A DNA stretch of 64,000 bases from Raillietiella orientalis (lineage: Eukaryota): NCBI GenBank assembly GCA_036172245.1, contig JAYWIR010000078.1, forward strand, positions 62,001-126,000, read 5' to 3'. The position numbers were made by a program, and so were the translations under genes. The number at the start of each line of letters is the position of its first letter. The first letter of the stretch is position 1. Positions 1 to 19,803 of the stretch are shown here, piece after piece. Below the pieces are notes generated by a model. The model did no database searches. It was not told the origin of the DNA and saw nothing but the letters and a program-made list of their open reading frames with translations.

Positions 1-789
1 GGATTTGCTGATGGTAATTTATGCAGCTCGGGTGTGTAGCACTCCAGTGTTGGTCAATGAAAAGCTGTGTTCACTGAATGCTGGAACATGAATAAATTCT
101 TTCGAACAATCTTGGTGTACGAAGTTTTTTATTCATGAGTAAGATACAACTCAAATGGGTAGCATTTTCGTTTTTAATGTGCATAAAACGCTACGTATGC
201 ATGATGAAACATACAAAGAAAAAGTGTTTTGGCAAGAATTGAAGTGTGTCAGCTTCTTAGGAAACTTTAGAAAACAGCATGGTGTCTTGTCACTGGGACT
301 GGAAACATCAGCATGCTTGGTGCTCACAATCTCCTCGTCGAAAGGCTCCCTAATAGTTGACTGCATGGTGTTGCAGGAGTACTGCTGTTGAGATGAGAAA
401 CTCACTTGCTGCAGTCCTATATTGATGACAACCTGCATTTTTTCCTGTTGCCTTGGGCATCCACGTGTCTTGTGAAGGCAGTTCAGGCGTGTGTATCCGA
501 TGTGTGCTGTGCACGAGTGGAATGTGTCCTTTTTTCCGTGTTGCAAAAAGGAAGATGACAGGGACATGTTGAAACAGTTGTGCTACCTCAAAGTCAGAAG
601 GTGCCACAGAACATTGCTTCATGAACAAGGAGCATCCTCACTGGCATCTTGTTTAGAAAGACGGAATGGACAATTGGTTTCTAGATTCTCATGGACAAGG
701 AAGTGAAGAATTCGGCAGCGTGGTTTTGGTGGAACGCATAAATGCTTAGCGCTTTAGCGTGGGAAATGCCTTTGTTCGGTGGCATTGGT

Positions 790-1591
790 TCCAATAGGTG
801 TTCAGTGGAATAAGGGATGATGCAGCGGTGGGTTGTGATTTTCTCGTAGTTGGGGTCCTTGTTGAGGAAGATGATGAAGCGAGGTGGATCGTATAATTTA
901 AGGTGACGTTGACATTTTGATGGAGCCCAGCGTTCCGATTTTCCGGATTTGCATAATGCCGTAGTTGCTGTGGTCATGTGAGGTCCAGCACGATGATTTT
1001 GTCTCCTTTCCCCATGTGGTTGGCGCCGCTCTATTTGCGATTGGTTACGTGCAGTGCCTAGCATTTGATATGTTTAGCTTCTGTGGTTTTTCCCCAGTTA
1101 CCTTGGTAGTCGGTGTACCAAGGATTGTCCGAGTCTGTTGCTGTCGATGTTGAAGCCATTCTGTTTATCGAACGGTGGTGGTTCGTTTTCGCAAAACCCT
1201 TTTTCTGTTTTTTCCCTCTTTTCTGTATGCGAAGATCTGAAATGCATTGTGTTCCTTTGTGTTTGTAATCGATGTACTTGCTCTTGTATAGTGGGAGGAT
1301 TTTCGTAGGTCTGTGGGCTCCTTTCTCATGGTTGTTGGACTTTTTGCGTTGAGCATTTCGTTTGGAGGTTTGCACGGGAGCTCTTGACAAACGTTGGATT
1401 GGTTTTAGGAGACGTATCGTGGAGGGTATTGCTGTTTGGAGGCATCCCTGGAGGTGAGCGGTTGGTGTTCAGCTTGCCTCTTTACCGAGGATTGCGTGTT
1501 TTGCTTTTCGAAGTGACCTTTCCTGTGTTTCCTCCGCGGTTATCCATCTGTTTGAGGTGAAGCACCGCTGCGTGCTCTTTGCCTATGGCAT
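790..1591 (-). pseudogene. rep: Endogenous CRESS-DNA virus Rep pseudogene (HUH endonuclease + SF3 helicase)
   Basis: One frame from ATG 1591, with internal stops, reads MP*AKSTQRCFTSNRW (motif I, cf. WCFTLNN), ILGKEAS*TPTAHLQGCL (motif II HLQG, 1445-1456), RAPVQTSKR..SNNHEKG (degenerate motif III), WYTDYQGNWGKT (Walker A, 1085-1102), KGDKIIVLDLT* (Walker B, ~980-997). After frameshifts: NYGIMQ..GSIK and DPPRFIIFLNKDPNYEKITTHR (motif C and Arg finger). 3' end approximate. Confidence 0.85.
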
Positions 1592-1646
1592 GTTGCGACT
1601 CTTTGGTGTGTGTGTGTTTGGTTTTCTACGGTTTCGAAAGTGCCGA

Positions 1647-1664
1647 GGTCAGGGTTACCCTGCC
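1647..1664. other. Putative degenerate rolling-circle origin hairpin of the CRESS element
   Basis: ggtcagggttaccctgcc has caggg/ccctg arms ~55 bp upstream of the Rep ATG. The canonical nonanucleotide is not intact. Confidence 0.35.
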
Positions 1665-1689
1665 CACTATCCAAGTGCTTTTGCTGTTC

Positions 1690-2420
1690 TCAGAAATGTT
1701 TCTTTACGTGAACTTCGCCGTAGACGTGGTGTATTGCATTGTCGTGATGATCATCGTATGGGAAATTCAATTGGTAATTTGGGACGTGCTTCCTCTTGGA
1801 TTGGTAAGGTGTTGTGTTGTGGTGCGCGTATTAGGTGTAGGGATTTGGCTTTTACGGAGGGTGCTGATACTGTTAGTCAAGAGTTGTGGCTTGTCAGCTG
1901 TGAAGTTTATTAGGTTGGTTGCTTTGTGTATGATACCGATTTGCATAAGCGCACGGTGAGTACGTTGCTTGGATTGCGGAAACCAACTGCAATTTCGAGT
2001 ATGTTTGAGTATGTAAAGTTGTACGGTGTGAGGATATGTTGCTGCGACAAATCCCGGAGAGGAGGAAGATTTTGGGAGTATGAAAAATGGTGATTCCGAA
2101 GGAGTGTGGAATCAGCTTACTAGGCAGCAAAGAAACTGATCACCTGTGTTTTGTAAATTAAAGAACAGGACGTTATGTGTGTATGTGATCCACGTATTCA
2201 GCACGAGATGCTGCATCTGACTGGTTCTACAGCGACACCCGGAATGTATGCCGCAGTGGACGTAATTGACTGTACTGTTCATCATTTAGCCAACATCCGA
2301 ACGGTGGCTCCAATTATAAACGAGGTGGGAATGAAGAAATGGGTTGTGTACGCGGTCTACTATTTTGAGTGTACGATGGAATTCATAGACGAGGATTCCT
2401 ACTGTGAATTTCGTGCAGTA
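1690..2420 (+). pseudogene. Possible decayed capsid gene of the CRESS element (ambisense to Rep)
   Basis: Arg-rich segment RELRRRRG just past the hairpin, and a beta-strand-like VYAVYYFECTMEF near 2350-2385. Based on position and composition only. Confidence 0.25.
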
Positions 2421-2899
2421 AGTATAAGCCTCGCCATGACTTCGTCACGCAGGCTTCAGAAAAAGAAGGCATTTCGGATTTCGTATTGTGAAGCATCCTT
2501 TCGTAGGATGTGGTCTCTGGACCTTGGTTTCGAGATGCTGATCACGCCCGAGTGCTCCAGAGTGTTGCTCGGTCGTTGCACAAAGGCTGACCGCTGCAAT
2601 GGCCACAAACCTCATTGCTGAGAAGCGTAGTATTTAGCTTGAGACTGGAAAACTACTAAAGTGTATCTCATGGCGGTTCTTCTAGTGTTTTCGTCACTAA
2701 AAGTCGGTGAACTTTACGTCCTCTACTCTTACATGTACTAAAGAATGGGCAGTGCCTGTTCAATGCAGAGGGCTTCATCAGACGCACTCGCAGAGTGAGA
2801 CAGCCCAGTGCTGCGAAAGAGATGAGCCAGCCAAAGCCTCACACCATATGGTTGGGCCTGTAAACACGCCTGCAGCAGCAGGACGCAGCGTTCCACGCG

Positions 2900-3620
2900 A
2901 CGGTGGCCGTAGCTGCGCCGAATGCGGTCAACGGTCGCGTTCTGAGGGCAAAGGCACGTCACCTAGGAATTGAGAACGTGAATGAAAGAAATTGGAAACG
3001 AGCCTCGGTTAAAAGCCCAAAGTTATCCCGAAAGGGGCGCGAAAGCACTGCAGTGCGAGACGTGTATGTGTATCATTATGAAGAAACTGTGTGTTTGAAG
3101 GGGATGGAGAAGGATATTCCCGCTTGCACGTAAACTGACCATTTACGTAGACTGCGATCATACCAGAATGCCCGATGCTCCTGTCATTGACGGTATCTCC
3201 CTAAGCGGTTGCCTGCTGAAGAAAATGAATGGAAGAGTTGCGATGACGGCCCGCTTCTTCGCTTCAGCTGTCGGATGGACCAAAACACCGTCCGAGAAAC
3301 CCTGTGCGTGCGTGGAAATCGAAGCAAACCGGAAACTTGCTCGGGAACACCTCGGGTGAGGCGCTTGTGAAGATCAAATCATACGCCACTACGCAGATTG
3401 CTGGCATCACGCCAATGGAGACCTACTCGCACGACTTTCCAGTCATGCGTACGAAGTAGTCTGCGCTTTTGTCTTTTGCGCTGCAACTTCGGAGACCGAG
3501 TGGATGCATGTCCAACTGCACTCTGCAACAAATGCAGCCATAGACGGAATGTCTGCACAATTCCGGGGTATCTAAAGCTCGAGCGTGAAAACAACCTGCG
3601 TTGGTACGAATGAGCAAACA
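2900..3620 (+). mobile_element. Decayed L1/Tx1 ORF1 (zinc-knuckle) remnant
   Basis: RFCLLRCNFGDRVDACPTALCNKCSHRRNVC aligns by eye with VFCTGCKQFCHRVNACPRSRCFRCGKQGHQVRNC of the ORF1 at 15015-16337. Confidence 0.5.
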
Positions 3621-4199
3621 ACGGACGAGATCCAGCATCCAATCTTGAAAACGCCAGCAGATCTAAGGAGATAACTGGAAACCAAGATGGGGATCACCGG
3701 ATGCGGAAAACTCGTCAAAGAGAAAATCAAGACGTCATTCGACCAGCTGGAGATAAGAAAATGAGAAACGAAGAGGTAGAGCAAGGAAAACCTTACCAAA
3801 TAAAAAGAAATAGGTAAAGCAAGCAGGGAAAGGTTCGACGAAGGACAAAAACACAGTTCAGCTCGCTTAAGAATAAGTAGAAATTGAAGTAAGAATTGGC
3901 TGCGCTGCATTGCATGTTTGGGGTCCTTACCATATGCGATACCACTTCAGAAATGTCATACATCGCCCATCACTCCCCGACACATTCAAATGATAGTTCG
4001 AGGGGATGACACTGAAAACGACATACAAGCCATTTTGTTTCAGCTACCTGCACCTCTGATTGAAAACAAAGAATCTCCTTCGCTCCAATGCTGTACCGTC
4101 TTCCGCATGAGGCATGCATTTGCCATAGAGAATACTTTACCATCCGTTACTCCTTTCTTCCTTCATTGAAAGCAGCAAATTTTCGTGACTCTTTACTAA

Positions 4200-5535
4200 A
4201 AAGTCGCTCCTCCATGCATTGGAAAAGTGCGTACACGAGCACTTCCCGCTCATGTCAACGCCCACTACTTCCATCCTCTGATGCGTCACAGGAGACAGGG
4301 ATTTGGGTATCGTTTGAGGCAGCTCACCACCTTGTTGGAAGCAAATACATGGATTTCCTGCCGCCCAATGAATACAATGCATGGCGGCAGGAATCCATTG
4401 ATTCCTTGGCTGCATTCTTAGGAATGAGCCACGAAAATCTTCGCCCCCTGCATCAATTTCAACCTTGGTCACTCCAAGATATGATGCAGGACGAGGTGAA
4501 GTTTTCCTCCCTGGCCGCCACGCCCCTTGCCGAAGCATTGCCTGCCCTAGAGGTTCGAGAAGACAGTAGCCATCCGGCAAGGTGGGAGTTCTCCTGCACC
4601 ATTGCAGGAAGAACGAAACCACTTGGCCAATGGGCCACGAGCGAGCTTGCGGATGCCGCCACTCCTCGTGCTACACCAAAGGGGAGAAACTCTTGGTGTT
4701 TCCCCCAAGGAACTTATAATCCCTCCCTGGTGTTTGGACGGCTCGGTGTTTCCCCTTGCATGAAGCAAGACGTCTTGCTCTTCTTGCACTGGGGTTTGTG
4801 CTACAACGAACGGCGCCACCGAGTTTCCGGTGGGGTGGCTTCACCCTACTGTGCCCGGTGCGGTGCGACGGAGTCGTTTCCGCACCTTGTTTTGGACTGC
4901 GGTGTCCTCCAGGAACTCTGGCGGAAGTTGGCAGCAGCACTCCTGCTACCGAGGGACACCGCCCGAGAAGTGCTGCGACGTTTCTTCCAAGCCCAAGGAC
5001 TTTCGAAGGCTGCGATGATTTCCACAGCTGGTTGCATCCGCGCCATCGTCACGGTCCGAGACGTGCTGGAGAATAGTGGTCAGCGATGTTGTGTCACCAG
5101 GAAGGCAGCCGACTTCATCAGAGCGGCAGCTGGGTGGCGACACCTGGACGAAAACGCAAAGGAGGAGCTCACTGGCATTTATCGCCGTATGATACACGGT
5201 TTGGAACGAAGAACCCGGTGATCCTTCTCCATTCCCCTGTTTACTTTATTTTTGTTCTTGCGCCCCACTTCCCATTCGCTCCGTAGTGCCTTTGGTGCTT
5301 TTCCTTTTTATCTTTTCCGGTGACTTCGGAGCGTCACCAAAGTTCCCTGGCCCATTCCTCCCATTTAGACTTTACTTTTTTGTTTATAGTCCCCTTCCCC
5401 ATTCGTTCAGGTCCTTCCGTTTTCCTGGCCTGCGTGCCAGTGGTGTATCTCCGTTGTTGGTTCTTGTAGTCGTTGGTTGGAAACAACTATTTCCAGCTAG
5501 TATATAACAATAAACGTCCCGGCGTGACCGGGTAA
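4200..5535 (+). mobile_element. L1/Tx1-clade LINE 3' fragment (family A): ORF2 C-terminus with zf-RVT-type finger and 3' UTR
   Basis: ORF 4088-5221 has LFLHWGL...CARCGATESFPHLVLDC. It is followed by a pyrimidine-rich UTR, AATAAA 5509-5514 and terminal hairpin cccgg-cgtga-ccggg 5518-5532. 5' boundary approximate. Confidence 0.85.
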
Positions 5536-7689
5536 CCAACTTCCATCCTCTGCAATCGAAACGTCTGTCGTCAGAGATATGCAGTTGAAATGAAGGCTCC
5601 CCTAGCAGAGGTCTTTGAATCTCCAGCGCAACGACAAGGACTCTACAGGGAATAGTCCGCAGCTTCCTTGGCAGAATCGCGAGCAGCCCTTCGTTTGTTC
5701 AGAGGGGCCTTGAAGGAATAGAAGATTGCCCGTTGCTATTGAAGCTGCACACAACGGCAGCGCCTCCTTGGATTCATGACGGATTTCGAGGCACGAAGCT
5801 TCCTTCAACATTCCGGTTTTCCCTGAGCCAAATTCAAAAGACAGGGGGAATACAGCTTCCACGCTGTCCTTGATGAACGCGCAGGCGATTTTCTTCCTGC
5901 GCTTGATACGCTGAATAGTTCGTTGGATCGAAATTCCGACTTTTGCCTTGCAGCGTTATTAATCATCTGGAAATCAAAGAGCAGTTCAACTTGAGCTCCC
6001 AGAGACTGCCCACAGAAGCATGAAAGGTATGTTCGAACGTTCCACTTTGTTGTTCCCGGTTACCCCCAGAACTGCATCCCCTATTCAGGAAGACGGACAC
6101 TGATTATTCAATCCACTTACAACACGAAATGGAGAACGTGGTTTACCGCAATTGCTATTCTTCTCGTACCACTTCCCAGCACGAATAGCATGGTCAATGC
6201 GTCAAAACACGCAATGCACTAACGAGCTAGCCCCTCGCTGGGAACCCAGATGGATGCTCTCTCCGTGGACTTAACCAACAGTCCACCACTTGCGCTAAAC
6301 GAGAAATTCTATTTCAAAAATGCTCTGCGGCTTGCGGCACAGATTCGTACCCACTCAACTCGACCCTACCGAAACCCATGACTTCAACAACCTAAATGAG
6401 TACCATAAACAGATGACTGCAAAGAAACAAACCTTGTCGAGTGGGAACACCGAAATTTTGACAATGAAGTGACTCATTCTATTCCACACATAGTACCCAC
6501 ATGTTGGCTTTAGGTCCTTCGCTTTTCTAGAGCAGCTATCTACATCTAATCATGCTCTTCACATCCCGTTTTGTACATACTTCTCTGCCTCCACGAAACA
6601 GAAAATTCATGGTAAACACAATCTCCTCTTCGCTGTCCATGCTCCATTCCTCCACCCTCCACCAGATATTCCATCTTACTGCATCCGTTATCAACCGTCC
6701 ATGCAAACTTTAGTGCCCAAAACTTTTACCATCCCTGCACAAAGGTCCTATGTGCAGACTTGTAACTAGAATGGAATCGCTATTGAAAACCATCGTCATT
6801 AACTCGGTTGACTCCTCCAATGCTCTTTCGATGAACATCTTCATTGCCTTAGTATTCATCATTATCGAAAATCAATCCAGATTTGTCCAAAACACATTCC
6901 CATCATCTGCTCTCTTCTTTGCATCCTTCCATTGCAAACTTGCTGAAGCATTCAGCATTCATTCCACATACCTAGGAAAAAAAAAACACTGACCCTATGT
7001 CTCCCCTTCTACTTTTCGAAACCTGGACATCTATCATTCAACGGGTATCCCTCTGAGATTGAGTTTCATGTGACCACATTACCTGGCATATGTGTCCAAA
7101 TTCTTACACTCTCCAATACGCAAAGCTCATCTCGATCCGTTTCAAGCAGATCTTTGTAAATTAGCCATGGTCCTCATGCAAACTTACAACTTCACTTACA
7201 GAACCTGTACGTACATGAAAATATCGATGCAATACCAATCCACCAACCATTCCTCCTTCACCAATGCACATCCATGATTCATCCTTCATTCTCCATAACC
7301 GCCATCCATACCCCTCTCCCTGACCTGTTACGCACGCAAGAAACACACCCGTCTTGCACTCTTCAGGGTATCTGCGTTGGTGAGTTGCCTGGAAAAGAAA
7401 GAATTGAAACGAGAGCATCGATTTCCAAGAACCCTTTTCACAAGAATACTAAAAATTTTCCATTAGCTGCATTTTCCTTCCCGGAAGGTTTTTAACTGGC
7501 ATTCATCTTCTGTTCATATCTTCCCGTTCCGGACTCACCCACAATTCGGCTTGAACTCAAACTCTGTTGAGAAAACCGCACTACACGCCATAGCAGCACC
7601 CCGCTTGAACGCAATTGGTTTCTTAGGGGCGAATGCTGGAAAGAAATCACAAAAGTCAACAAAAATCACAAAAGGAAGAGGTCCACCCT

Positions 7690-8690
7690 CTGAAACGTGG
7701 CTCCTGCCAGAGGACTGGCCGAGCCTCTCAGGAGCAGCGGAACATCGCGCGCTTCAGCGAGAATTCCAACTTCGGATGCTCTCTGACTGGGACGAAATGA
7801 AGAGCTCAGTCCGACCAGTTCTTTATGAACCGTCTTCCTCCGGCTTTTTGCGAGGGATTGAGGAAGCAGAGGGCCTACCTCTGCTTCCTCAATCCCTCAC
7901 AAACAGGTCCGTCTCTACTCCAGCAATGGACGTCCGACGACTGGCGGAACCAAGAGCTGGGGCCGAAATATAGACCTAGCAATCCGGGTCGACCAGGTTG
8001 CAGGACGCCGATAGCTGCGAATACTCAGACCCAGCGCAGGTAAACCGCATCTTTCGTGTTTTTTTAATCCTCACTTTACACGAGAGCAAGAGCCGAGCGC
8101 GCCTTTGAACAGCGATTGCTGCCAGCAGGCGCCTCAGCGTTGAGGGATGAGATTAGCAACCACCTCCAGGAGCCTTTCTCGATGGCGAAGATCACCTCCG
8201 CCATCGGAAAGCTGAAAAAACGAAAGGCACCAGGGATAGACGGTCTGCCCGCGGAGTTTCACCAGTGCTTCGCGGCAGAGCTGGTCCCCCTGGTGCTGAA
8301 ACTAGGCATGCTGATCCGCGAACGAGGGGACCTTCCCGACTCGTCCATCTAAGCTAGAGTACGTCTCCTCCCGAAAGGAGGAGACTTACGCAACGTAGGC
8401 AACTGGCGGCCCATCACTCTTCTGAATGAGGACGGGAAGTTGCTTGCCAATTTGTGGGGTGAGCGACTTGGACGGGTGGAGGAATCCGTGGTCAGTGTGG
8501 AGCAGACTTACGCGGTTCCCGCGCGAACTGTGGTGGCGATTCAGGTCAAGAGTATCCCGAGTTTCCTTTGTCGAAGGAGGGGAAGGCCAAGGGAGAAGAA
8601 CCGTGTCCGGAGCCATTGCAGTTGCCGATTTGCGTAAAGCATTCGATTTTGAATACTTTTTACCTGTACTGTGGCTGGACCAGTGATCAA
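7690..8690 (+). mobile_element. L1/Tx1 ORF2 fragment (linker and RT N-terminus), decayed
   Basis: KAPGIDGLPAEFH, LLPKGGDLRNVGNWRPITLLNEDGKLLA, EQTYAVPAR and ADLRKAFD, with stops and frameshifts. Confidence 0.8.
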
Positions 8691-8699
8691 GCGACGCCC

Positions 8700-8930
8700 A
8701 AGGAAACAATAGGGAATCTCCCGATTCACCTATTCGCAGACCGGTACGTTCTACCAAGGCAGCAGAACGAAGGGGGAGCAAAATAAAAAACAAAACAAGA
8801 ACAAGAGGAAATGTGGGGGGTGCCGGAGGAGATCACTGTTGCTTCTGGGGCTGTGCATCGTTTGCAGGATCCGGCAAGCTCTTTCTGCATTTCTGGAACT
8901 ACATGTAGCCATTTTTCCCCAAGTCCCACA
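8700..8930 (-). mobile_element. Family-A LINE fragment: ORF2 extreme C-terminus and start of 3' UTR
   Basis: WLHVVPEMQKELAGSCKR resembles WRHLDENAKEELTGIYRR at the end of ORF 4088-5221. It is followed by gtgatc and a pyrimidine-rich tract, as at 5218 and 13126. Confidence 0.55.
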
Positions 8931-9046
8931 TGAGGTGGGGTAAATCTATTTTTCCAATTTTACATTACATTCATACTACAATCACATTCACACTACTGGC
9001 ACTATACTACCACTTTGAAGTCCTTGGGGTGTCACAAGTTCTGCAC

Positions 9047-11081
9047 TCAGAGTGGGTTTCCAGATGTTTGGTTTCGGACGTCGTCCACAATGCTCTTCAG
9101 GATGAATCGGTACGTCCAGGCATAGATTCGTCCACAGTTCCTGATATCGATCTCCCTCTTGATGAGTCCTTGCAGGATCTCCATCGGGGGTGCGGCTCTC
9201 CTGGCTTTCCTCATCTTCCACCACCGCACAAGTATGGCGGTGATGAAGAGGGCGATGGTCGTTCTTACCATGGGATTGTAGCAGGGAACATTACCATTTT
9301 TCTAAAACATCCCGGATTTCCATCACATACTTATTGTTTCGTCCTATGATCCTTTTCAGGATCAGCCAGTCGTGTAGCAATGTGGGACACGTCAAGACAT
9401 GAAGTCTCGTATCGATGTCTCCACATGCCGTGCAGTCTTCATCTTCCCGTCTTCCGGTGAAGTGCTTGAGCCTGGACCCGCTTTGGATTCCTCCATGATA
9501 GAACATCAGGAGTTCGTCCTGGGTGCCCGGAGGAAGGTCACTCCTCCATAGCGTCGTGACGATTGCTAACAGGTTGATGCTGTCACTCCCGTAGCGATCG
9601 GCGGCTTCTTGGAGGGCACTGGTGTCTTGGTCCTGGTCCTTGATAATCTTCCGGAGATTCATCTTGGTTACCCTAGACCACTCTGGAAGTCGTTGTGGTT
9701 TATCCACACTTCGCGGGTCTTATGGGTGAACCTACCTAGCATCATCTCCATATACCGAAGTATACGAGTGTGATGTAGGTATCCTCCTCGTCGCCATTCC
9801 TGGATTCTTTGCAGGGTAACTCTGGGCCGCTGGTAGATCCAGCTTCTCGTGTCCGGAGGGACCGGAAGCATCCACGGGATCACCAGGATGAATTCCTCCT
9901 GCCAGAGTTCCCTGCTTCTCGGCACGATCTTGATGTTGTGCTTGCGCACCAGCCGCTGCTTTCTCCTCCAGGTTGGGTCGATGGTGTTCCACTCCTCTGC
10001 TCGGCCTAGCAGCTCAGTCATCAGGCCTTTCGAGTTGTTCAACAACAACGCGTAGGCCCTATGCACCGCGTACGGCCAGTCATCCCAGTGAGTAGCGATA
10101 TCCAGGATGTGTCGCGAATCCATGATTTCCATGGAGGTGCGACATCATCAAGCGACTTCATCCCGGAACCGCCCTCTTCTTTGGGACGACACAGGAAGTT
10201 TCAAACGAACTCTGGGGCAATAATGCCCCCACAATATCTTTCTTTGCAGCTTTTCTACTTCTCTGGTATTCTTTTTCTTCATTCTCGCGAAGGCCGCTCC
10301 AAAGAGCACCTTTGGAAGGAGTACTCCATTCCAGAGGTTGGCCTTTCGCTTCATGCCAAAGTCCAGTCGGGTGTACTTCTCTGCTTCTTTTGCCTTTTTC
10401 CCAGGATTTCCGTCCACAGTAGCTTCGACGCAGAGTCGTCGCCGATGTAGACTCCCAGGTACTTGGCCGCGTCCATTGTTTGAAATCCTCTCCCCGTGAG
10501 AGCGGAGAGATCCAGGATTCCGACGGGCAAAAGCTGGCTCTTCTGGGCGTTAATCTTCAGGTCCAGTCCTTCTTCCATTAGCGTCACCACATCCAGGAAT
10601 GCTTGCTGATCCCTCTCTCCCCTAATGAAGAAGAGGAGATCGTCTGCGTAAGCGAGATGGGTGAGCTTCTTGCTGTTGATTTCCATACCCCGTAGTCGCC
10701 CGCTCTTCTCGATGAAAGAAGACAGCGCCTCCATGTAATAACGAACAGCATCGGACTTGGAGAGTCTCCCTACCGAACTCCTCGTTCCATCCGAATGGCT
10801 GTTGTTTCTACCCCGTTGATCTTGATCCGGAAACGTTGATTCCGGAGGATCATTTCTACGAAGTTGCTGAAGTATTCCGGAAGTCCCAGCTTTTCCAGAA
10901 TCTTCAGCAGCATCCCGTGATCGATGGTGTCGAAGGCTTTCTCCATGTCGGTGAACGCCAGCACCAGGTTCTCGCCGACGTATCGGCTAAGTCCCACGGT
11001 GGCCTGCGCGCACTTGACATTGTCCGACATGTGGCGTCCGGGTACCGCACATGTCTGGACAGGAGAAATCAGCCTCGACAT
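9047..11081 (-). pseudogene. Family-B ORF2 RT and C-terminal domains (frameshifted)
   Basis: ISPVQTCAVPGRHMSDN, FTDMEKAFDTIDH, ERGVR*GDSPSPML, LAYADDL, KINAQKS, KYLGV and CTACGDIDTRLHVLTC across successive ORFs. Confidence 0.9.
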
Positions 11082-13417
11082 ACCATGGAGACCAACCTGT
11101 TCCTCGCCAGCAGCTGGTGGCAGCTGCAACAACGCGAGGCTCAGCTAGGTCGTGAGAGTCCTGGACTCTCCACAGATCGGGGGGAGGGAAGCCTAAGGGG
11201 AGAAGCGGCGCCCGGAGCCCTTGAGGTCGCAGTCGATCTGCGTAAAGCTTTCGACTGCGTCGACCAGGAACTCCTCCTGGAGCTCCTGGAACGCATGGGA
11301 TTTCCTGCCGTCTTCCTGGTCTACCTGCGCTCCTGCTGGCGCTTCGCGTTCATCAATATTAATTTCAGCGGACGGCACGTGTACGGCGTTCCGGTTCGTC
11401 GCGGTATCCGGCAGGGTGACAGCCTCAGCCCCCTGCTCTTCAGCATCTACTTTGAGTTGGTGCTGAGAGCATACAGGGAGACTTTGGCAACCCTGCCGAG
11501 CTCGTGTCCCGGCACGCCTGCCGTGTCGACCTATGCCAACGACCTTCTGCTCCTGCTTCCCGGGTCCACCCCGGCATCGGCGCTCGAGGATTTCTTCGAG
11601 TTGCTGCGCCGTGGAACTGGTCTCGACGTAAACAGGGCGAAGTCGTCCATAATTCAATCGGACACGTCGCGGGCAGGACGGTCGGACTGGAACCGCTTGG
11701 GGATCCCCACGGGCGGATACATCAAGTACCTTGGCGTTCCGTTGGGGGACTTCTGCGCTGCAGAAGCCTGGTTCGACCGTCTCCAAAAGGTGGAGTTGGA
11801 GATCGGCCCGTTCCGGGACGGCAAGTTTTACTTGCAGGAAACGGGCCGCGGTATGGAACGCCTTTGCGGCCCCCTTCCTTCGCCCCCTACTTTTTGTGTG
11901 TCCCGCCCCTCCCCAAATTAGGACACGGTCAAGGGACCTCATACGGAAAGCCCTCTGGGGCAACCGGAGGCCCCGCGCCCGCCTTAAAGACTTGTGCGCT
12001 CCACGCAGGGACGGTGGACTTGGTCTCCTGACGTTGGAGCGCATGGAGCGACAGCTCCAATTTAGAAAACTTGCCCTTGTGGCAAAGTATTGGACAGCAC
12101 TCTGGTGTGCGCCGGCAAGACTCCACGCTCACAGGGCGACCGGCTGTTTCGGATTGACCACAATCCTAGTAGCCAACGACCGTAGCCTAAACCATTGTGG
12201 GTTTCAGCTACGGGACTTGGTTGCCCTGTTGAGAGACAAACCGTGGATCTCCTGCATCCCTGCGGACTGGACTACCTAGCTACAGGAGTCCGTTTCCGCG
12301 TGGGCCTAAATCAACGGCTCCAGCGATGAGGACTTCTCCTGCCTCCGTAGAGGCAGGTAGGCTAATCAGCCACTGCAGGAGATCGTTTGCAACCCACGGA
12401 AACTTCTGTGGGCTTCCTTCACCCTCCTTGCCATCGTGCTGCCCTCCCTCAGGAAAGTTAGGGACAGCCAACATGAGGCATCGTGGGAAGTGTCCTGCCT
12501 CATCGGAGGCGGGAAAAAACTGTTGAAGGCGTGGACATCCCGGGAACTAGCGGACGCTAGTACCCCCTCTGTCCCGCCGAATGGACTTGTACGCTGGGGC
12601 GCGCTGCTCGACGTATCTCTGGAGGAGGTAAAGTGACCCCCAGCGTCTTGGGACAACGGCACCCTTCCCCTGCAGTAGCAGGAGACGGCGTTGCTTCTGC
12701 TCCATTGGGGACTTTTAAGCAGAGCACGCCTGTCTTACTGGACATCGGGGAGTGTGGATGCCAATTGCGTCAAGTGCGGGGAAAGGGAGTCCTTCCCCCA
12801 CTTAGTCATCGATTGTGTTGCTCTCCGCGAGATGTGGGACCGACTCTCGTCGATCCTGAACATTCCGGTGGGCGACCCCAGGAACATCTCTAGACGCCTC
12901 CTGATGCGGGACGCCTTGCCAGCCTCCGGGTGTAGCAGTGCTCTGTTGCATACGCGGAATCCTGGACAAGTGGACCGCGTCAAGGAGAGGCCGGACCAGT
13001 CGGAATGCCATTCACTGGGCAGCCATCTCCTTGGAGAAGGCCTGCCGTTGGCGCCGACTCAAGAAACATTTGCCGGCACTTGTTCGCATCCGCAACCGGA
13101 TGCAGAGGCCTCCTCACGGTGTACCGTGATCCCCTCCCTTCCCCTCCCCCCGCCCAAAGAACATTGCCTCCCCAGGCGGTTTCCTTTTTTTGGTTTTATT
13201 TTTGTTTTTCCCGCCCCTGCGCCAGTGTGGAGGACCTTATCGGCCTGCGGGTCGGTAAGGACAAGTGCCACAACATAGTCGGATCATGTGTTCCGACGCA
13301 AAACAAATCAACGGAAAAAAAAGAAAAACTTTACTTGACAAGCAAGCAAGACTTTATTATGAAATTTTTATTGTAAAAATTTTAATAATAAAAGCCCCGG
13401 CTCACCCGGGTGAAAAA
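11082..13417 (+). mobile_element. 5'-truncated family-A L1/Tx1 LINE inserted antisense into family-B ORF2
   Basis: VDLRKAFDCVD, RRGIRQGDSLSPLLF, YANDL (YADD decayed), VNRAKS, KYLGV, GGLGL and CVKCGERESFPHLVIDC. The 3' UTR ends aataaaagccccggctcacccgggtgaaaaa at 13417. Confidence 0.9.
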
Positions 13418-14796
13418 CCTCTTCTTCAGAGAAATCCTCCTCCAGTCTCCTCCGTTGGAGGTCGTCTATCTTCTTCTCAAGATGGCTCAAGAAGGTCTTC
13501 TGCATCGCCTGACACAGATGTTGTCGCCGGAAGTGTCCCGTGTATTGCCTTTCGAAGGCGTCCACGATGTCCTCCGACGTGTGTCGGCTATGGTCGCCGT
13601 CCTGAATACTGAAGATATCTGAAGCCAGATTCTTCTTCTCCAGCACGCCGACTTCCTCTTTTACGCTATGGAAGACGTCCCGACTCTCGTACTGATCGAA
13701 GTACTTTGAGAGGGAGCGATCTTGGATGTTCAACTCCCGGTACGCCTCCTGCCTCAGTCTCTTATCGCCAAATTGCATTTCTGCAAACAAATGTATCCTG
13801 TGCTTCAGGCTGTCCCAGTCGGCGACTCTTCTGATCGTAGTGGTCTTCAGAATCGCCTCCAGGACCTCCTGATGACAGGGATGGGTTTCGAACCAGGCGG
13901 GCATGCTGATGAGTGCCTCCCTGGTGCCTTGCCTTCGCCTAGGATTTTCCGTCCTCAGGGAAAACAGCACCAACGGGTGATCCGACAGCGCAGTGAGCGT
14001 GTCGCGAAAACCTTGGATGCGGTTCCCTAGTTCGGTACTGTGAAGGATGTGGTCGATCGGCTTGTGGCTAGCTGTTCGCCACAGCAGCCCGAACTCGTCG
14101 GACAACCGCCAATTCGCCGTCCTTCCCCTGGAGTCCTGGGAATGGGTGATCACATCCAGGATGTTGAGATCGCCAGCGACGATCGCGACGTCCTTGGGCG
14201 CGACCTTTTGCCGGAGAGCTGCATGCAGCGCCTCCGCACACCGATGTTTCAGTCTGGGTGGCCCGTACACGCTCACCAGGAAGAGGTGAACGGTAGCGGA
14301 CCACGCCAGTCGCACGCCGATGATGCGTCCCGGCAAGGGACAGAGGACTTCCAGAATGGTGGAGGCCAGGTGGTTCTTGATCAAGACCGCCACACCTTCC
14401 GTGTTCCGCCGTCCCTCGCTGACGAACATCTGGCTATCGAGGCGTCGTTCCATCTGTTGGCTGATCTGGTGACCCAGCCTGTGGGTCTCCGGCAGGATGT
14501 CTTGATGTTTTCACCCGGATAAGCCGGGGCTTTTATTATTTTAAAAAATCAGAATTACAATTATTAATTGCAGTCGATTGATTATCATTGCTTTTGTGTT
14601 TCTGTCGGAACACTTTTCCGTATTGTTTTGCACTTGTTTACCGACTTGAGTGCCGGTAAGGCCTACTCCACTCGCGAAGGATGTCTTGATGTGCGATGAT
14701 CCGCACGATCCTTTTTCTTTTCTCCTGGTCGATCAATCCATTTACATTCCAGAAGGCGATGTTGATCCTCCTGGAGGTCGATAGAGACGAGGTCAT
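13418..14796 (-). pseudogene. Family-B ORF2 apurinic-like endonuclease (APE) domain, split by a 169-bp insertion
   Basis: ATG 14796 gives MTSSLSTSRRINIAFWNVNGL...HQDIL, then after the insertion PETH, GVAVL, VSVYGP, AGDLN, IDHI and SDH. Confidence 0.9.
14509..14677 (-). mobile_element. 169-bp family-A 3'-end-only retroinsertion with 15-bp TSD
   Basis: Direct repeat aggatgtcttgatgt at 14494-14508 and 14678-14692. The insert is homologous to the 3' UTR at 13215-13417 and ends AATAAAAG-CCCCGGCTTATCCGGG-TGAAAA. Confidence 0.9.
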
Positions 14797-14808
14797 AAAG
14801 GGGAAGAC

Positions 14809-16395
14809 CTACTTCTTGGCCTTCCTGAATTTCTTCTGTCTGGGAGGTTGTTGTGATCTCCCAGACGAAGAAGAAGCAGTGGGCTTCTCGCTGCCAGCGT
14901 CACTCTCCTTTTCGGTGAGGTCGGTAACATTGGCCTCCTCGGTGGAGTGCTCGGCTTGTGTGACGAGTTTACGTGAAAGTACTTCCAACACCACCCTAGC
15001 GCAGAAGTTTGCCTTTACGTCGAGAAGCTTGTCCTCCAGCTTCTCGCGCTCGGCAGTTTCCACCACCTGGTTGATGGTTTCTTGCGCATTGCAGATCTTC
15101 TGCAGGAGTTGTTCCTGCTGAGCTCCGCTCTGCGCCTCCGCCACTGCTTCTGCCAGTTGTTCCACCACTTCCGTGGTCTGCAGGACCTCCTGCGACACTG
15201 GGGTGTGCTCTGGCGTTTTCGCCACCTCGCCTTCCTCCCGACTTCCATCCTCTCGGCCTCCTCTGCCACTACTTCCGGGATAAGAGGAGTTTCCTGTTCC
15301 TTGACGAGCATCTTCCTCTTCCCCTTCTTTCCTACTTCTACAAAGCCGTCCGCCGAAACCGGAGCGGCCTCCTTCGCCTTCCTCTGTTTTTCAGTCACCT
15401 TTCTAGGCTGTTCCGCCTCCTTGAGGGTTCTTTCCTTCATGGGGGAAAGCCCTTGCATCTTACGGCAGTTGGCGTATTCGGGACAGCTCCACTTAGCATA
15501 TCCCGGTTTTTTGCAAAAGGAACAGACTCCCGGCTGCTGGCAATTGCGGACTTGGTGTCCCTGTTTGCCGCAGCGGAAACAACGTGATCTTGGGCAAGCA
15601 TTGACCCTGTGGCAAAACTGCTTGCATCCGGTGCAGAATACCGGTTGCTGCCGGTAGCGCATGCTCACCTCTTGGGAATCGCCATCAATGTGTGCGATCC
15701 CGGGAATCACCGTATCTTCGAAAAGCGTCACCTTAGCGATCACGTTACCAGAAAAGATCTTCCTGGAGAAGTTCTGGAACTCAAGTTCCAGTACTTCCCC
15801 ATACCTTGCAAGAAAATCCCACACCGTTATTTGGGTGGTATATATGGATACTCCACTTAGGAAGACGGTCGTGTATGGCATCTCGCCGATGCCACGGACC
15901 ATTCTTCCCTGGATGTTGATCCCCGTTTGGATCAACGCTTCCCTAATGTGTTCGCAGTCTGTGTAGACTGTGAAACCCGATGTACTAGGGATGATCGCCT
16001 GGATGCGATCAAAGTATACATTCGCCTTGTACAGAGACAAGTAGACCTCTCTGATGTTATGGAACCGGATTAAGTCGGTCTTGAAGGTGATGGGCTTCAC
16101 GTTCGGACCCACCCGAACGATCGGCTCGTCCACCCTGGCCAGCTTCCCACATTCCGGTTTCCCGGAGCTTCTCTGGGGCTGGGCACTAGCCTGGCCCGCC
16201 GCCACCGCCGCGTACGAAGATGGCCGCACCGCCGCAGCCGAGCAAGATGGCGTCGCGTCCTGCGTGGACGCCCGCGGGTCCCGCCTGGGACGCCGCCGCC
16301 GCGGGCGCGATCCTTGGAGTCGCCGCCGCCTCGCCAATGCCGTACTGTACCTCCATTGGGGACGTCGGCCTCTCCACTGCTCCCGATGCCTGCAT
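14809..16395 (-). pseudogene. Family-B ORF1 (Tx1-type gag-like, CCHC zinc knuckles), probably two frameshifts
   Basis: SYAAVA motif, RRM-like TTVFLSGV...LARYGEV, and three knuckles CTGCKQFCHRVNAC, CFRCGKQGHQVRNC, CSFCKKPGYAKWSC. The stop at 14809 lies 12 nt before the ORF2 ATG. Confidence 0.85.
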
Positions 16396-16872
16396 CCTCG
16401 CGGCTGACACTGCCGCTGGGGAAGTTAACAGGGCTTCCACCGTGGACTCCTCGGTGCTGCTACTGCAGGTGGTGAAGGTGGTCCTCGGCTGCACTGTCAC
16501 TGTCACACTATTTTTCCTTGACTCTTCCCCGCTCAGGGCACGCAAAAATTGCCGCGGCAGTGGTTTTACGCACTGCCTTGGCGGGGTATTGGGTAAAGTT
16601 TTCAACTAGTAATAATCGCGCCTCCCCGTAGATCAGCCGCGGCGATACTGCCCGTGCGCGAGCCTGACTGACAGTCCTCGTCTCAGCAGCAGAGGAGCAA
16701 TCTGCCGATCTGCCGACTGCAATCTGGTGGCGACGGCAACACCGCCCACCAACCAACACGTGAGGCGGCACAGCAAACGCAGCAATTGACTGCACTATGC
16801 CTTAAGTCAGAGACATCTCTCTGAGACCCGGTGTGTCCATTCTGCTACTAGATAGCCTACTTATGTGGCCAT

Positions 16873-17420
16873 CTATCTGCCTAAAACTTTCCCCAACGCG
16901 CCGAGCAGGAACCATCGTTCCTGTTCGGAGCGTTGCATGCTGCTCTGTGCCCATGTGCAAACGGTTTCCTGCAACCAGTCACGAAGGCCGTTCGCGGGGA
17001 GACAGGTAATCCATCCATGATTCTTCCATGTCATGGTAGCCACCCTCCGTAGATGGAATCCGCAGCGGTTGATGCGGCGGCGATGGAGTGCGAGAAAAAA
17101 AGTGAGTCCCGTCTTACCGGTGACTTCCATGACGAGGAGACATGCAGGGACGCACCAAGAGTTGCATCACAATTCCGGCACAAGGGCCGCCATACGGAAC
17201 TGGAGCTGAAGCTTCAGCCGCTCCGGCGTCAGGAGCTGAGACCGCCGCCCCGACGCGGAGCTCACAAGTCCTTCAAGCGGTTTCAGACCCTCCTGTCGCC
17301 TCAAAGGGCGATATGGAGGAGATCCTTCGACCTCTTCTTAATTCCCTCTGTGGGGGAGGGGCAAACAAAAAGCAAGGGGCGGTCAATTCCTGTTTTTTTT
17401 CCAACGTGCTATTGCAAGCG
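16873..17420 (-). mobile_element. Family-A LINE ORF2 post-RT fragment
   Basis: LHRRRINRCGFHLRRVATMTWKNHGWITCLPANG matches NDRSLNHCGFQLRDLVALLRDKPWISCIPADW of ORF 11731-12279. Confidence 0.75.
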
Positions 17421-19803
17421 TTGTGGCGCGACGGGCAGTAGGTCCTGTGCTCTTCGCGAGATCTCAGTCCCTTCTAGGTTCCTGGTTTTTTGACTGCTCG
17501 CGCGAAGATTTGCAAGTGAATTGCATAGTTTACTCTTTCCATGCTCTTGGAGGAGATAGCAATCCTTGTTTATTATTATAGACATCTACACTGTTCTGGG
17601 TTGTTCACTCTGTCAACAGATTGCTGGTTCTATCTACAAGCCTGCTCCAATCTTCTGCACCCAATCTTCTTTATTTTTCCGTATTGGCATTCCTTGCAGT
17701 CCACTCTTCACGCGCACACCACATTCCTTCAAGAGACAATGCTTTTCTTCTCAGCACATCCGATGGTCGTTCGCTACCCTCATCACCTGCCAAGCCCTAC
17801 TTTCACCTCCTATCTCGAAGAAAAGCATCCACTTGTGAATCGCCCATGTGATTTTCCTCTCTCAAAGGGAAAACTAGGAGACGCGGAGCGTTGAAGCCGT
17901 CATGATCCAGAGTGCATCCGACCATCTTCACCTCCTCTACTCACAGAATGTTGATTTCCGTTGTTCGATTATCCATCAGCTGCTGGCGGAAACTCACACT
18001 TGAGATCCGTGGGATGGAAAGATCGAGCGTTCGAATGAGGATGCTGTGCAAACAGGCGGTGCACAGAGGGGAATACATAAGATACGAGCGTATTGGTTTC
18101 CAGTCGGGCTCAGTCTGGGGTCAATTCCAAATGATTTATTCTTATGGGAATCCTATGTGGTAAGGATCCCGTTGCAAACACACGTTTTCCTGTGAGGCTC
18201 ACGTTGACGTCATCACCGAGCATAAGTTGGGAATGACTCCTTGCTGCTTGTTGCTTTCGGTTTTTGGAAAACAGGCTGCGATGCGGGTTGTTCAGGTAGA
18301 TGATGGACATTCTCAATGGATGGTGATGTTGATAATGTATTTATGCTGTCACAGCACGTTTTTAACTGTCTTGCGTGGTCTCGAAGTTTGCTGAAGCATC
18401 TCGAATCGAGCTGTTCTCGGCAAGCTATCGTGGTACCCATTCATGCTTGTGAATGGAAAAGCTGACAGCAGTAAGCACTGTGATTGTCAGGGTTTTTTGA
18501 ATAGGGGTCGGTTTAAAATAAGCAGTCAACAAGAAAAGGTGTTTCGTTCAGATCTCGGATTGTGGATACAGCATTCCTCATTTCGTAGCAGTGTTACCAC
18601 TTGTGTTCTCCATGTTCGTCACTTACATGCTTGAACCACGATATCACAGCAGTGCTGTAGTCAAGAGAGAAACATTCACCAGAAACTGATGTGAAGAATT
18701 TCATTAACCAGACAGCAGACAACTCGAGTATTTAACTACCTTTATGAACTTATAATTAGCATCTGCAGTCCTTTGTGTAAACTGAGAACGGAACTTTATT
18801 TCCATTGTGAATTCAGCCCAGCTATACAAAGATTGCCTTTGGGTATTCTCAAATTTGGTGACCTTTCCTCAACGCAAAGTGAAGAAACCGAGAATCGTAT
18901 CAGGGATTCTGGAGAGGCATTCGTTTGCCCTGCGTCCATTTAACAAGTGGGAAGCTCCTCAAATAAACTTTGACAACTGAAGTGCACGCAAATAATCATA
19001 GATATCTGCTGCACGAATTCGGGAGTTTGATAATTCATTGCATAAGCAGATGCTGTGTTATCCGAAGCCAGGACCAGGAAATGGTAAGAGTAAGTGTATA
19101 CTGCTGATGCAAATGCAAACCTCATTTCGAAAGGAAACACTTCGAGTGCTGAAATTTTGTTGGTTTGGATGCAGACTTTGAGTTTGCTTGTCGCCAAATG
19201 ACAACCTATAGTGGAAGTGTCTTGCAAAATAATGTATCCTACTGGAGCCGTTCCTTATGCAATTTGTGAGTCAGTTGCAAACAATAAGCATATTCGTGTA
19301 GACATATCCCGTTGTACAGGTGCTCTTCTTGTACATGGAAATTGCATGAAGGTTACGCACTCTTAGGGAAACGAGTGCGGATGTTCGATTTGGGTTGAAT
19401 ACTTAAAATTTAGAATTCATTCGTTCAACTCTTGCCATATTTTGTTGGTTTCGTAATGTATAGATGGATGCTTGCAAAATGTATGAATTTATCAAAAAGG
19501 CATGATGCTTTTCTAATTGGTTACTTCCTGTGATCGGACCACTTTGATCTTACTTTGAAGATTGTATTTAGCTCTCCATAGGCCATGCCATAAACTTATG
19601 TACATCACCACAACATAAAAGTATGCTTGAAATAAGTCCAGATTAGAATTTCAATAGATAAACATGTATATTTTTTTTTTTTTTTACAAACACACCTAAT
19701 CCTAATGTTTAGGAAAAAAAATACCTATTTATATAATCTGCAATCAAAACGATGGGAGGAGTTTAAGGTAGGTATGATTTAAACCTACAAAAGTCTGAAA
19801 GAA

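Follow-up and report, generated by a model that had tools for sequence, protein, structure and literature searches.

Pieces of retrotransposons without long terminal repeats are nested across positions 1-17.5 kb of a 64,000-nt stretch of Raillietiella orientalis DNA (contig JAYWIR010000078.1, positions 62,001-126,000 of the forward strand; this whole stretch is called the window below, and all coordinates refer to it). One of them, a long interspersed nuclear element (LINE) that we call copy A, carries two adjacent RNA hairpins, HP1 and HP2, in the 3' untranslated region (UTR) behind its second open reading frame (ORF2), and three further copies in the window, B, C and Z, hold counterparts. 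Compared at the level of sequence, LINE lineages with proteins about one-third identical still hold an HP1 with a CUGCGN loop and the GGA/UCC core of HP2. The layout of copy A, from its reverse transcriptase (RT) domain to a terminal hairpin, HP3, is as follows.

10716-11918, plus strand: RVT_1 domain of copy A (6e-14, above the cut-off)
12679-13129, plus strand: C-terminal part of copy A ORF2, decayed and frameshifted, with its stop TGA at 13127-13129
13130-13418, plus strand: whole 3' UTR of copy A, 289 nt (z of the fold -2.22, 0 of 200 shuffles folding as well)
13235-13260, plus strand: HP1, ccuuaucggc-CUGCGG-gucgguaagg, 10 bp including two G.U pairs
13261-13277, plus strand: linker ACAAGUGCCACAACAUA, which begins with ACAAGUGC at 13261-13268; common to copy B, not to C or Z
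13278-13297, plus strand: HP2, gucgga-UCAUGUGU-uccgac, 6 bp
13387-13418, plus strand: terminal module, with AAUAAA at 13387-13392, 3 nt, HP3 (CCCGG-CUCAC-CCGGG) at 13396-13410 and UGAAAAA, the end of the element

By eye, the frame-2 tail of copy A can be aligned, stop included, with the C-terminal end of the ORF of copy C, which is intact, and the same region (12679-13275, plus strand) resembles a zf-RVT C-terminus below threshold (E 0.01; 16.9 bits against a cut-off of 27.5). As the ORF2 stop lies at 13127-13129, HP1 begins 106 nt into the 3' UTR, the kind of region to which the original prediction had assigned the motif. The element does not stop near 13305-13320: its tail goes on for about 120 nt beyond the end first given and closes at 13418, and its parts follow in the order C/T-rich leader, HP0, HP1, linker, HP2, A-rich spacer, AT-rich hairpin, AAUAAA, HP3 and UGAAAAA. 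The 3' end thus lies 158 nt beyond HP1 and 121 nt beyond HP2, and the two hairpins together span 121-183 nt from it. The terminus of copy A reads ...GGGUGAAAAA, and copies A and B both finish ...CCGGGUGAAA(A), with just 3-5 A residues in place of the poly(A) end typical of relaxed L1 elements. AAUAAA sits 23-26 nt upstream of the 3' end of the LINE tail, which is the usual distance between this signal and the cleavage site, and we infer that the signal is connected to that end. A target-site duplication and a 5' end of copy A were looked for and not found, the sole candidate being a chance 9-mer match. An imperfect AT-rich palindrome (13353-13393, plus strand) stands directly before AAUAAA in copy A, and a shorter AT palindrome occupies the same place in copy B.

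Copy B is a minus-strand tail lying inside a different element, LINE X, and its surroundings reveal how it arrived there:

14509-14677, minus strand: copy B, a tail of 169 nt truncated at its 5' side, which retains part of HP0 and, after it, HP1, linker, HP2, AAUAAA, HP3 and UGAAA(A)
14659-14638, minus strand: HP1 of copy B, loop ACUCAA
14637-14630, minus strand: linker ACAAGUGC, as in copy A
14620-14606, minus strand: HP2 of copy B, with the sequence first quoted for it present
14537-14532 (AAUAAA) and 14528-14514 (HP3), minus strand: terminal module of copy B, then UGAAA(A)
14678-14692 (upstream) and 14494-14508 (downstream), minus strand: target-site duplication ACATCAAGACATCCT, a perfect 15-bp direct repeat
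13419-14508, resuming at 14678-14800, minus strand: endonuclease region of LINE X ORF2, split by copy B
15018-16424, minus strand: LINE X ORF1 with a zinc knuckle (zf-CCHC 0.0012; 19.3 bits, below the cut-off of 20.8)

The interrupted frame of LINE X (Exo_endo_phos, 13371-14510, minus strand, 2e-10, above the cut-off) reads ...RIIAHQDI before copy B and HQDILPETH... after it. The 15-bp duplication and the split frame together identify copy B as a 5'-truncated product of target-primed reverse transcription, and the junction between copy B and the duplication sets the true 3' end right after the terminal hairpin, without a long poly(A). A LINE tail of this family was therefore mobilised by target-primed reverse transcription, ending just past the terminal hairpin.

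Copies A and B are the sole alignable copies in the window (65.2% identity over 201 columns by blastn). Their alignment extends past HP2, through the A-rich spacer and the AT-rich palindrome, to AAUAAA, 3 nt, CCCGG-N5-CCGGG and UGAAA(A), and identity is unevenly distributed along it: 50 of 64 columns are identical in HP1-linker-HP2 and 50 of 91 in the spacer and AT region (Fisher p = 0.0037), while AAUAAA and HP3 agree in 22 of 24. Copy B lacks the two outer pairs of HP1 and the two outer pairs of HP2 that are seen in copy A. The linker shared by the two copies had been offered as part of the motif; its ACAAGUGC does stand where expected in A and B, and the diverged copies C and Z hold no counterpart. 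For those two copies the features are:

5423-5442, plus strand: HP1 of copy C, (ucc)uggc-CUGCGU-gcca(gug), with the core ctggc-CUGCGU-gccag at 5425-5440; 26.4 bits to the HP1 covariance model described below
5476-5497, plus strand: HP2 of copy C, guuggaaa-CAACUA-uuuccagc, the hairpin quoted in the original prediction
5509-5532, plus strand: terminal module of copy C, AAUAAA, 3 nt, CCCGG-CGUGA-CCGGG, in the same arrangement as in A and B
8727-8746, minus strand: HP1 of copy Z, uaccggu-CUGCGA-auaggug, 6 of 7 pairs; 25.9 bits to the HP1 model

All three hairpin sequences that had been quoted were found at the positions given for them. The hairpin at 5476-5497 had been described as sitting in the equivalent position, and this assignment had to be changed: it matches HP2, and the true HP1 counterpart in copy C is 5423-5442. 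Copy Z is a minus-strand LINE with a decayed tail and with its RT at 11084-10357. These elements are distant relatives, the ORF2 C-termini of A and C being 32-36% identical and the RTs of A and Z 33-36%, and their tails are otherwise unalignable (56% mean column identity in a gappy alignment; blastn within the window gave no A-C or A-Z tail match). At a similar place in each tail, A, C and Z carry the loops CUGCGG, CUGCGU and CUGCGA, so that CUGCGN is found in three of the four copies. Among the 89 CTGCGN sites of the window, the flanks form 6 or more of 7 possible pairs at four (null mean 1.2, P = 0.04), and three of these sites lie in LINE tails, about 97-202 nt past the stop. The window has the module AAUAAA-N3-CCCGG-N5-CCGGG in three places and no more, namely in A (13387-13410, plus strand), B (14537-14514, minus strand) and C (5509-5532, plus strand).

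A CUGCGA-loop hairpin with 7 of 7 pairs at 4966-4985 (plus strand), inside the ORF2 coding region of copy C, was taken as chance because copy A has no counterpart there. As for the terminal hairpin, in the three diverged LINE tails that have it the stem is invariant and the loop variable; the last letters of the tails are UGAAA(A) or UAA, and no long poly(A) follows. When the beginnings of three 3' UTRs were compared by eye (13130-13215, plus strand; 5222-5270, plus strand; 8843-8770, minus strand), all were seen to share TGATC at the stop codon, a stretch rich in C and T, and the motif TTTATTTT(T)G, with C-rich sequence behind it. A further LINE piece at 16990-17381 (minus strand), 44-62% identical in protein to the post-RT region of copy A, has no tail attached; of the pieces in the window it is the one most closely related to A.

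To characterize the hairpins as RNA, each was folded alone and compared with 200 shuffles. Each folds as it had originally been drawn. HP1 reached a minimum free energy of -17.4 kcal/mol in copy A and -10.7 kcal/mol in copy B, in both cases with 0 of 200 shuffles folding as well; the values for HP2 were -9.8 kcal/mol in A (1 of 200) and -4.7 kcal/mol in B (10 of 200), and the copy C hairpin at 5472-5501 gave -11.2 kcal/mol (1 of 200). A 131-nt context around the hairpins of copy A was also unusually stable (z -3.07, 1 of 200 shuffles). The sense strand is far more stable than the antisense strand, at -17.4 versus -7.0 kcal/mol for HP1 of A, -10.7 versus -7.2 for HP1 of B and -11.2 versus -6.2 for HP2 of C. 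Because this difference comes from G.U pairs, it suggests that HP1 and HP2 are structures of the sense-strand RNA. A perfect 9-nt complement between GGCACUUGU (13075-13083, at the end of ORF2) and ACAAGUGCC in the linker (13261-13269) was considered as a long-range pairing and set aside as probably chance, since by our own arithmetic about 0.7 such pairs would arise by chance and copy B has no upstream arm.

Pairing was then examined over all four copies, whose HP1 sequences align without gaps. In this alignment 29 of 32 cells are paired, against 55% at most in slid registers, and two C-G pairs have become U-A through substitutions on both sides of the stem, once in C and once in Z. In HP2, the pair p3, next outward from the invariant GGA/UCC core, is CG, CG, UA and GC in A, B, C and Z and constitutes one covarying pair; the table of HP2 pairs was anchored by coordinates, as the MAFFT alignment of three HP2 segments was out of register with the structure. 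The description of the motif as covarying thus fails between A and B, where the only stem substitution is one-sided, and retains some support, of a suggestive kind, from the two double-sided changes in the distant C and Z. A covariance model, the check proposed with the original prediction, was built for HP1 from the four copies. Searched through the window with filters off, it recovered only the four sequences on which it had been trained and the antisense strands of two of them (next sense match 12.8 bits, E 2.2); no copies were gained beyond the training set, and the statistics for covariation are weak.

A loop that is kept, a stem free to change as long as pairing is kept, and the lack of poly(A) together form the signature of stringent-type LINE tails. 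We consider it probable that HP1 and HP2 are the upstream, protein-binding module of a multi-hairpin 3' UTR in an L1/Tx1-like group of LINEs in an arthropod genome. The motif had been proposed as a functional structured RNA, either a protein-binding site or a catalytic element; the former is the best reading, given that a CUGCGN loop is kept on altered stems in LINE tails whose proteins are 32-36% identical, and the latter finds no support. The folded tail would be recognised by the element's own proteins, either the ORF2 protein (ORF2p), as in stringent-type LINEs, or the zinc-knuckle ORF1 protein. HP1 would be recognised through its loop, with its stem read by shape. Terminal HP3, beside AAUAAA, may position the start of reverse transcription. 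Since HP3 occupies the priming end, HP1 and HP2 are read as an accessory upstream module: they would serve as additional binding sites for assembly of the ribonucleoprotein or for cis-recognition and not as the site of initiation.

A number of observations weigh against this interpretation. Protein binding by HP1 and HP2 is itself a prediction from sequence. In experimentally studied stringent LINEs the recognised stem-loop is at the very end; here HP3 holds the terminal place and HP1 and HP2 lie 121-183 nt away from it, so that of the tail's hairpins these two are not at the extreme 3' end, although the module as a whole may qualify. Folded alone, HP1 of copy C is no more stable than its shuffles (23 of 200), and the 131-nt context of copy B is ordinary (z -0.47, 63 of 200). 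The HP1 loop of copy B is ACUCAA and not CUGCGN, the HP1 of copy Z has a G.A mismatch, and its HP2 is uncertain because of a competing fold. The pairing statistics come from just four copies, all decayed or truncated. The HP1 values observed were matched by 29 of 500 shuffles for pairs changed on both sides and by 23 of 500 for the covariation score, which is suggestive and not proof, and related sequences can beat shuffles without any structure.

The same doubts lead to a first alternative, which we regard as unlikely: the hairpins might simply be inherited through shared descent, without a function of their own, their persistence reflecting chance together with a GC-rich block that decays slowly. 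Between A and B the single stem substitution is one-sided (U.G to C-G) with no double-sided change, and the linker, identical in 15 of 18 columns, is conserved as much as the stems, so that shared descent suffices for this pair. The copies are moreover all dead (A frameshifted, B truncated, Z decayed), and when three copies are used the observed covariation is matched by 150 of 500 shuffles. Shared descent accounts less readily for the distant copies: the tails of A, C and Z are unalignable and their proteins 32-36% identical, yet each keeps a CUGCGN-loop hairpin at a similar place, where about 0.007 such hairpins would be expected by chance in some 755 nt of tails (our own arithmetic, scaling the null mean of 1.2 in 128 kb). 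Two double-sided changes also preserve pairing.

A second alternative, to which we give somewhat less weight and which we hold to be quite unlikely, is that the hairpins act at the level of the mRNA through a host RNA-binding protein, in stability, nuclear export, translation or 3'-end processing of the LINE transcript, unrelated to recognition by the reverse transcriptase. The position of HP1 and HP2 well upstream of the 3' end, which is taken up by AAUAAA and HP3, would suit such a role, and a sequence-specific host factor would likewise read a conserved loop. In contrast, Rfam offers no match to a known family of cis-elements, and the HP1 model search of the window found no such hairpin outside the LINE cluster.

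Finally, ribozymes occur in some retrotransposons. A self-cleaving or otherwise catalytic RNA is nevertheless very improbable here, because the unpaired linker that would have to be its core is not kept in C or Z, the two simple hairpins are independent of each other with no conserved junction, and over the whole window neither a ribozyme nor any other Rfam family reaches the gathering score apart from a U4 match at 16527-16665. Even at E up to 10, positions 13050-14750 gave four chance-level matches, none of them a ribozyme, and only one, 6A RNA, overlaps the motif (16.7 bits against a cut-off of 41.2); the original remark that no ribozyme core could be recognised thus agrees with the Rfam search, which returned no credible match of the motif to any family. 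A LINE-1 ribozyme is the subject of PMC11620745.

Turning back to the protein-binding module, we compared it with known systems. Most LINEs pick their own RNA through structured 3' tails, and L1-clade elements are usually regarded as poly(A)-dependent and relaxed. According to PMC4176376, the ORF2p of a stringent LINE binds a stem-loop of the tail, reading the loop specifically and the stem generally. The tail described here resembles those of zebrafish ZfL2-1 and ZfL2-2 and eel UnaL2, of the L2 clade, as presented there (PMC4176376): a 3' UTR stem-loop with the loop kept and a stem that appears to change with pairing preserved, no long poly(A), and the element's own ORF2 protein as the proposed reader. 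It differs in its L1/Tx1-like clade, in the distance of HP1 and HP2 from the end (121-183 nt, with HP3 terminal), in having no 3' microsatellite repeat and in being known from sequence alone.

Closer in clade are L1-clade LINEs of monocots and one green alga, which Ohshima 2012 (PMC3472496) describes as keeping a conserved 3' hairpin with compensatory changes. The monocot LINE1-1_ZM group (with ZmSINE2 and ZmSINE3) and the green-algal L1-1_CR share with the present elements an L1-clade-like affiliation, a specifically structured 3' end in which the loop is conserved and the stem changes are compensatory (suggestively so in the present elements), and a tail that is not poly(A) alone. As that source has it, in these plant and algal elements one hairpin occupies the final ~45-50 nt, and its loop bases UCU and the CGAG that flanks it are conserved, whereas here the host is an arthropod, there are several hairpins, the loop is CUGCGN and no partner short interspersed nuclear element (SINE) was seen in the window. 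A further parallel is the 3' UTR RNA bound by the R2 protein (PMC11194090), where a folded multi-helix 3' UTR is the platform for the reverse transcriptase before target-primed reverse transcription; R2 has a restriction-like endonuclease and is specific for rDNA, and the present tail shows neither sequence nor structure similarity to it and no Rfam match.

The tail therefore appears to carry a known kind of signal and not a new class of RNA, in an arthropod LINE family that is apparently undescribed; among the titles and abstracts searched, none describes this LINE family or loop, the loop sequence itself not having been a search term. An arthropod L1/Tx1-like multi-hairpin tail without poly(A) would provide an animal example beside the plant and algal cases, and the CUGCG loop is a concrete, mutable candidate for binding studies. 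The practical value lies mostly in repeat annotation, which gains a true 3' end at the terminal hairpin. More tentatively, diverged L1/Tx1-like arthropod lineages might share a tripartite tail code consisting of a CUGCGN-loop hairpin, a GGA/UCC-core hairpin and a terminal hairpin abutting AAUAAA, a possibility that we find doubtful. If true, it would mean that animal L1-clade elements can be strictly stringent, and a loop-specific handle lying 120-180 nt away from where priming occurs, combined with a terminal stem-loop, would be a two-site mode of recognition that is not known to have been described for LINEs; it would also support stringent recognition as ancestral in the L1 clade.

The clade assignment follows from the domains together with the nearest database proteins, which are 27-38% identical overall; the named ones are mostly from plants and one is labelled LINE-1 RT. 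We therefore refer to the LINE group as L1/Tx1-like, a provisional placement. The ESM Atlas yielded only generic RT clusters, with scores of at most 0.90. ARAGORN found 0 tRNA genes in positions 1-18000 of the window, and hence no SINE head. Searches with the terminal-hairpin pattern returned three loci in metagenomes, unrelated beyond the pattern, 23 in genome contigs, all prokaryotic and matching by pattern only, and 0 in viral contigs.

Outside the LINE pieces, the window contains host exons for EHD, ADP-dependent glucokinase, translin and Sds3. Between the EHD exon and the EHD proteins listed, identity is 82-88%; the named ones among these proteins are nearly all from arthropods, and this gene marks the host as an arthropod. 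The U4 small nuclear RNA (snRNA) match mentioned above is full-length (RF00015, 79.9 bits, model positions 1-138) and lies on the minus strand, about 100 nt 5' of LINE X ORF1. It could represent a genuine gene, a chimera formed by template switching between U4 and a LINE, or a target preference; LINEs that target snRNA genes are known (PMC4640811).

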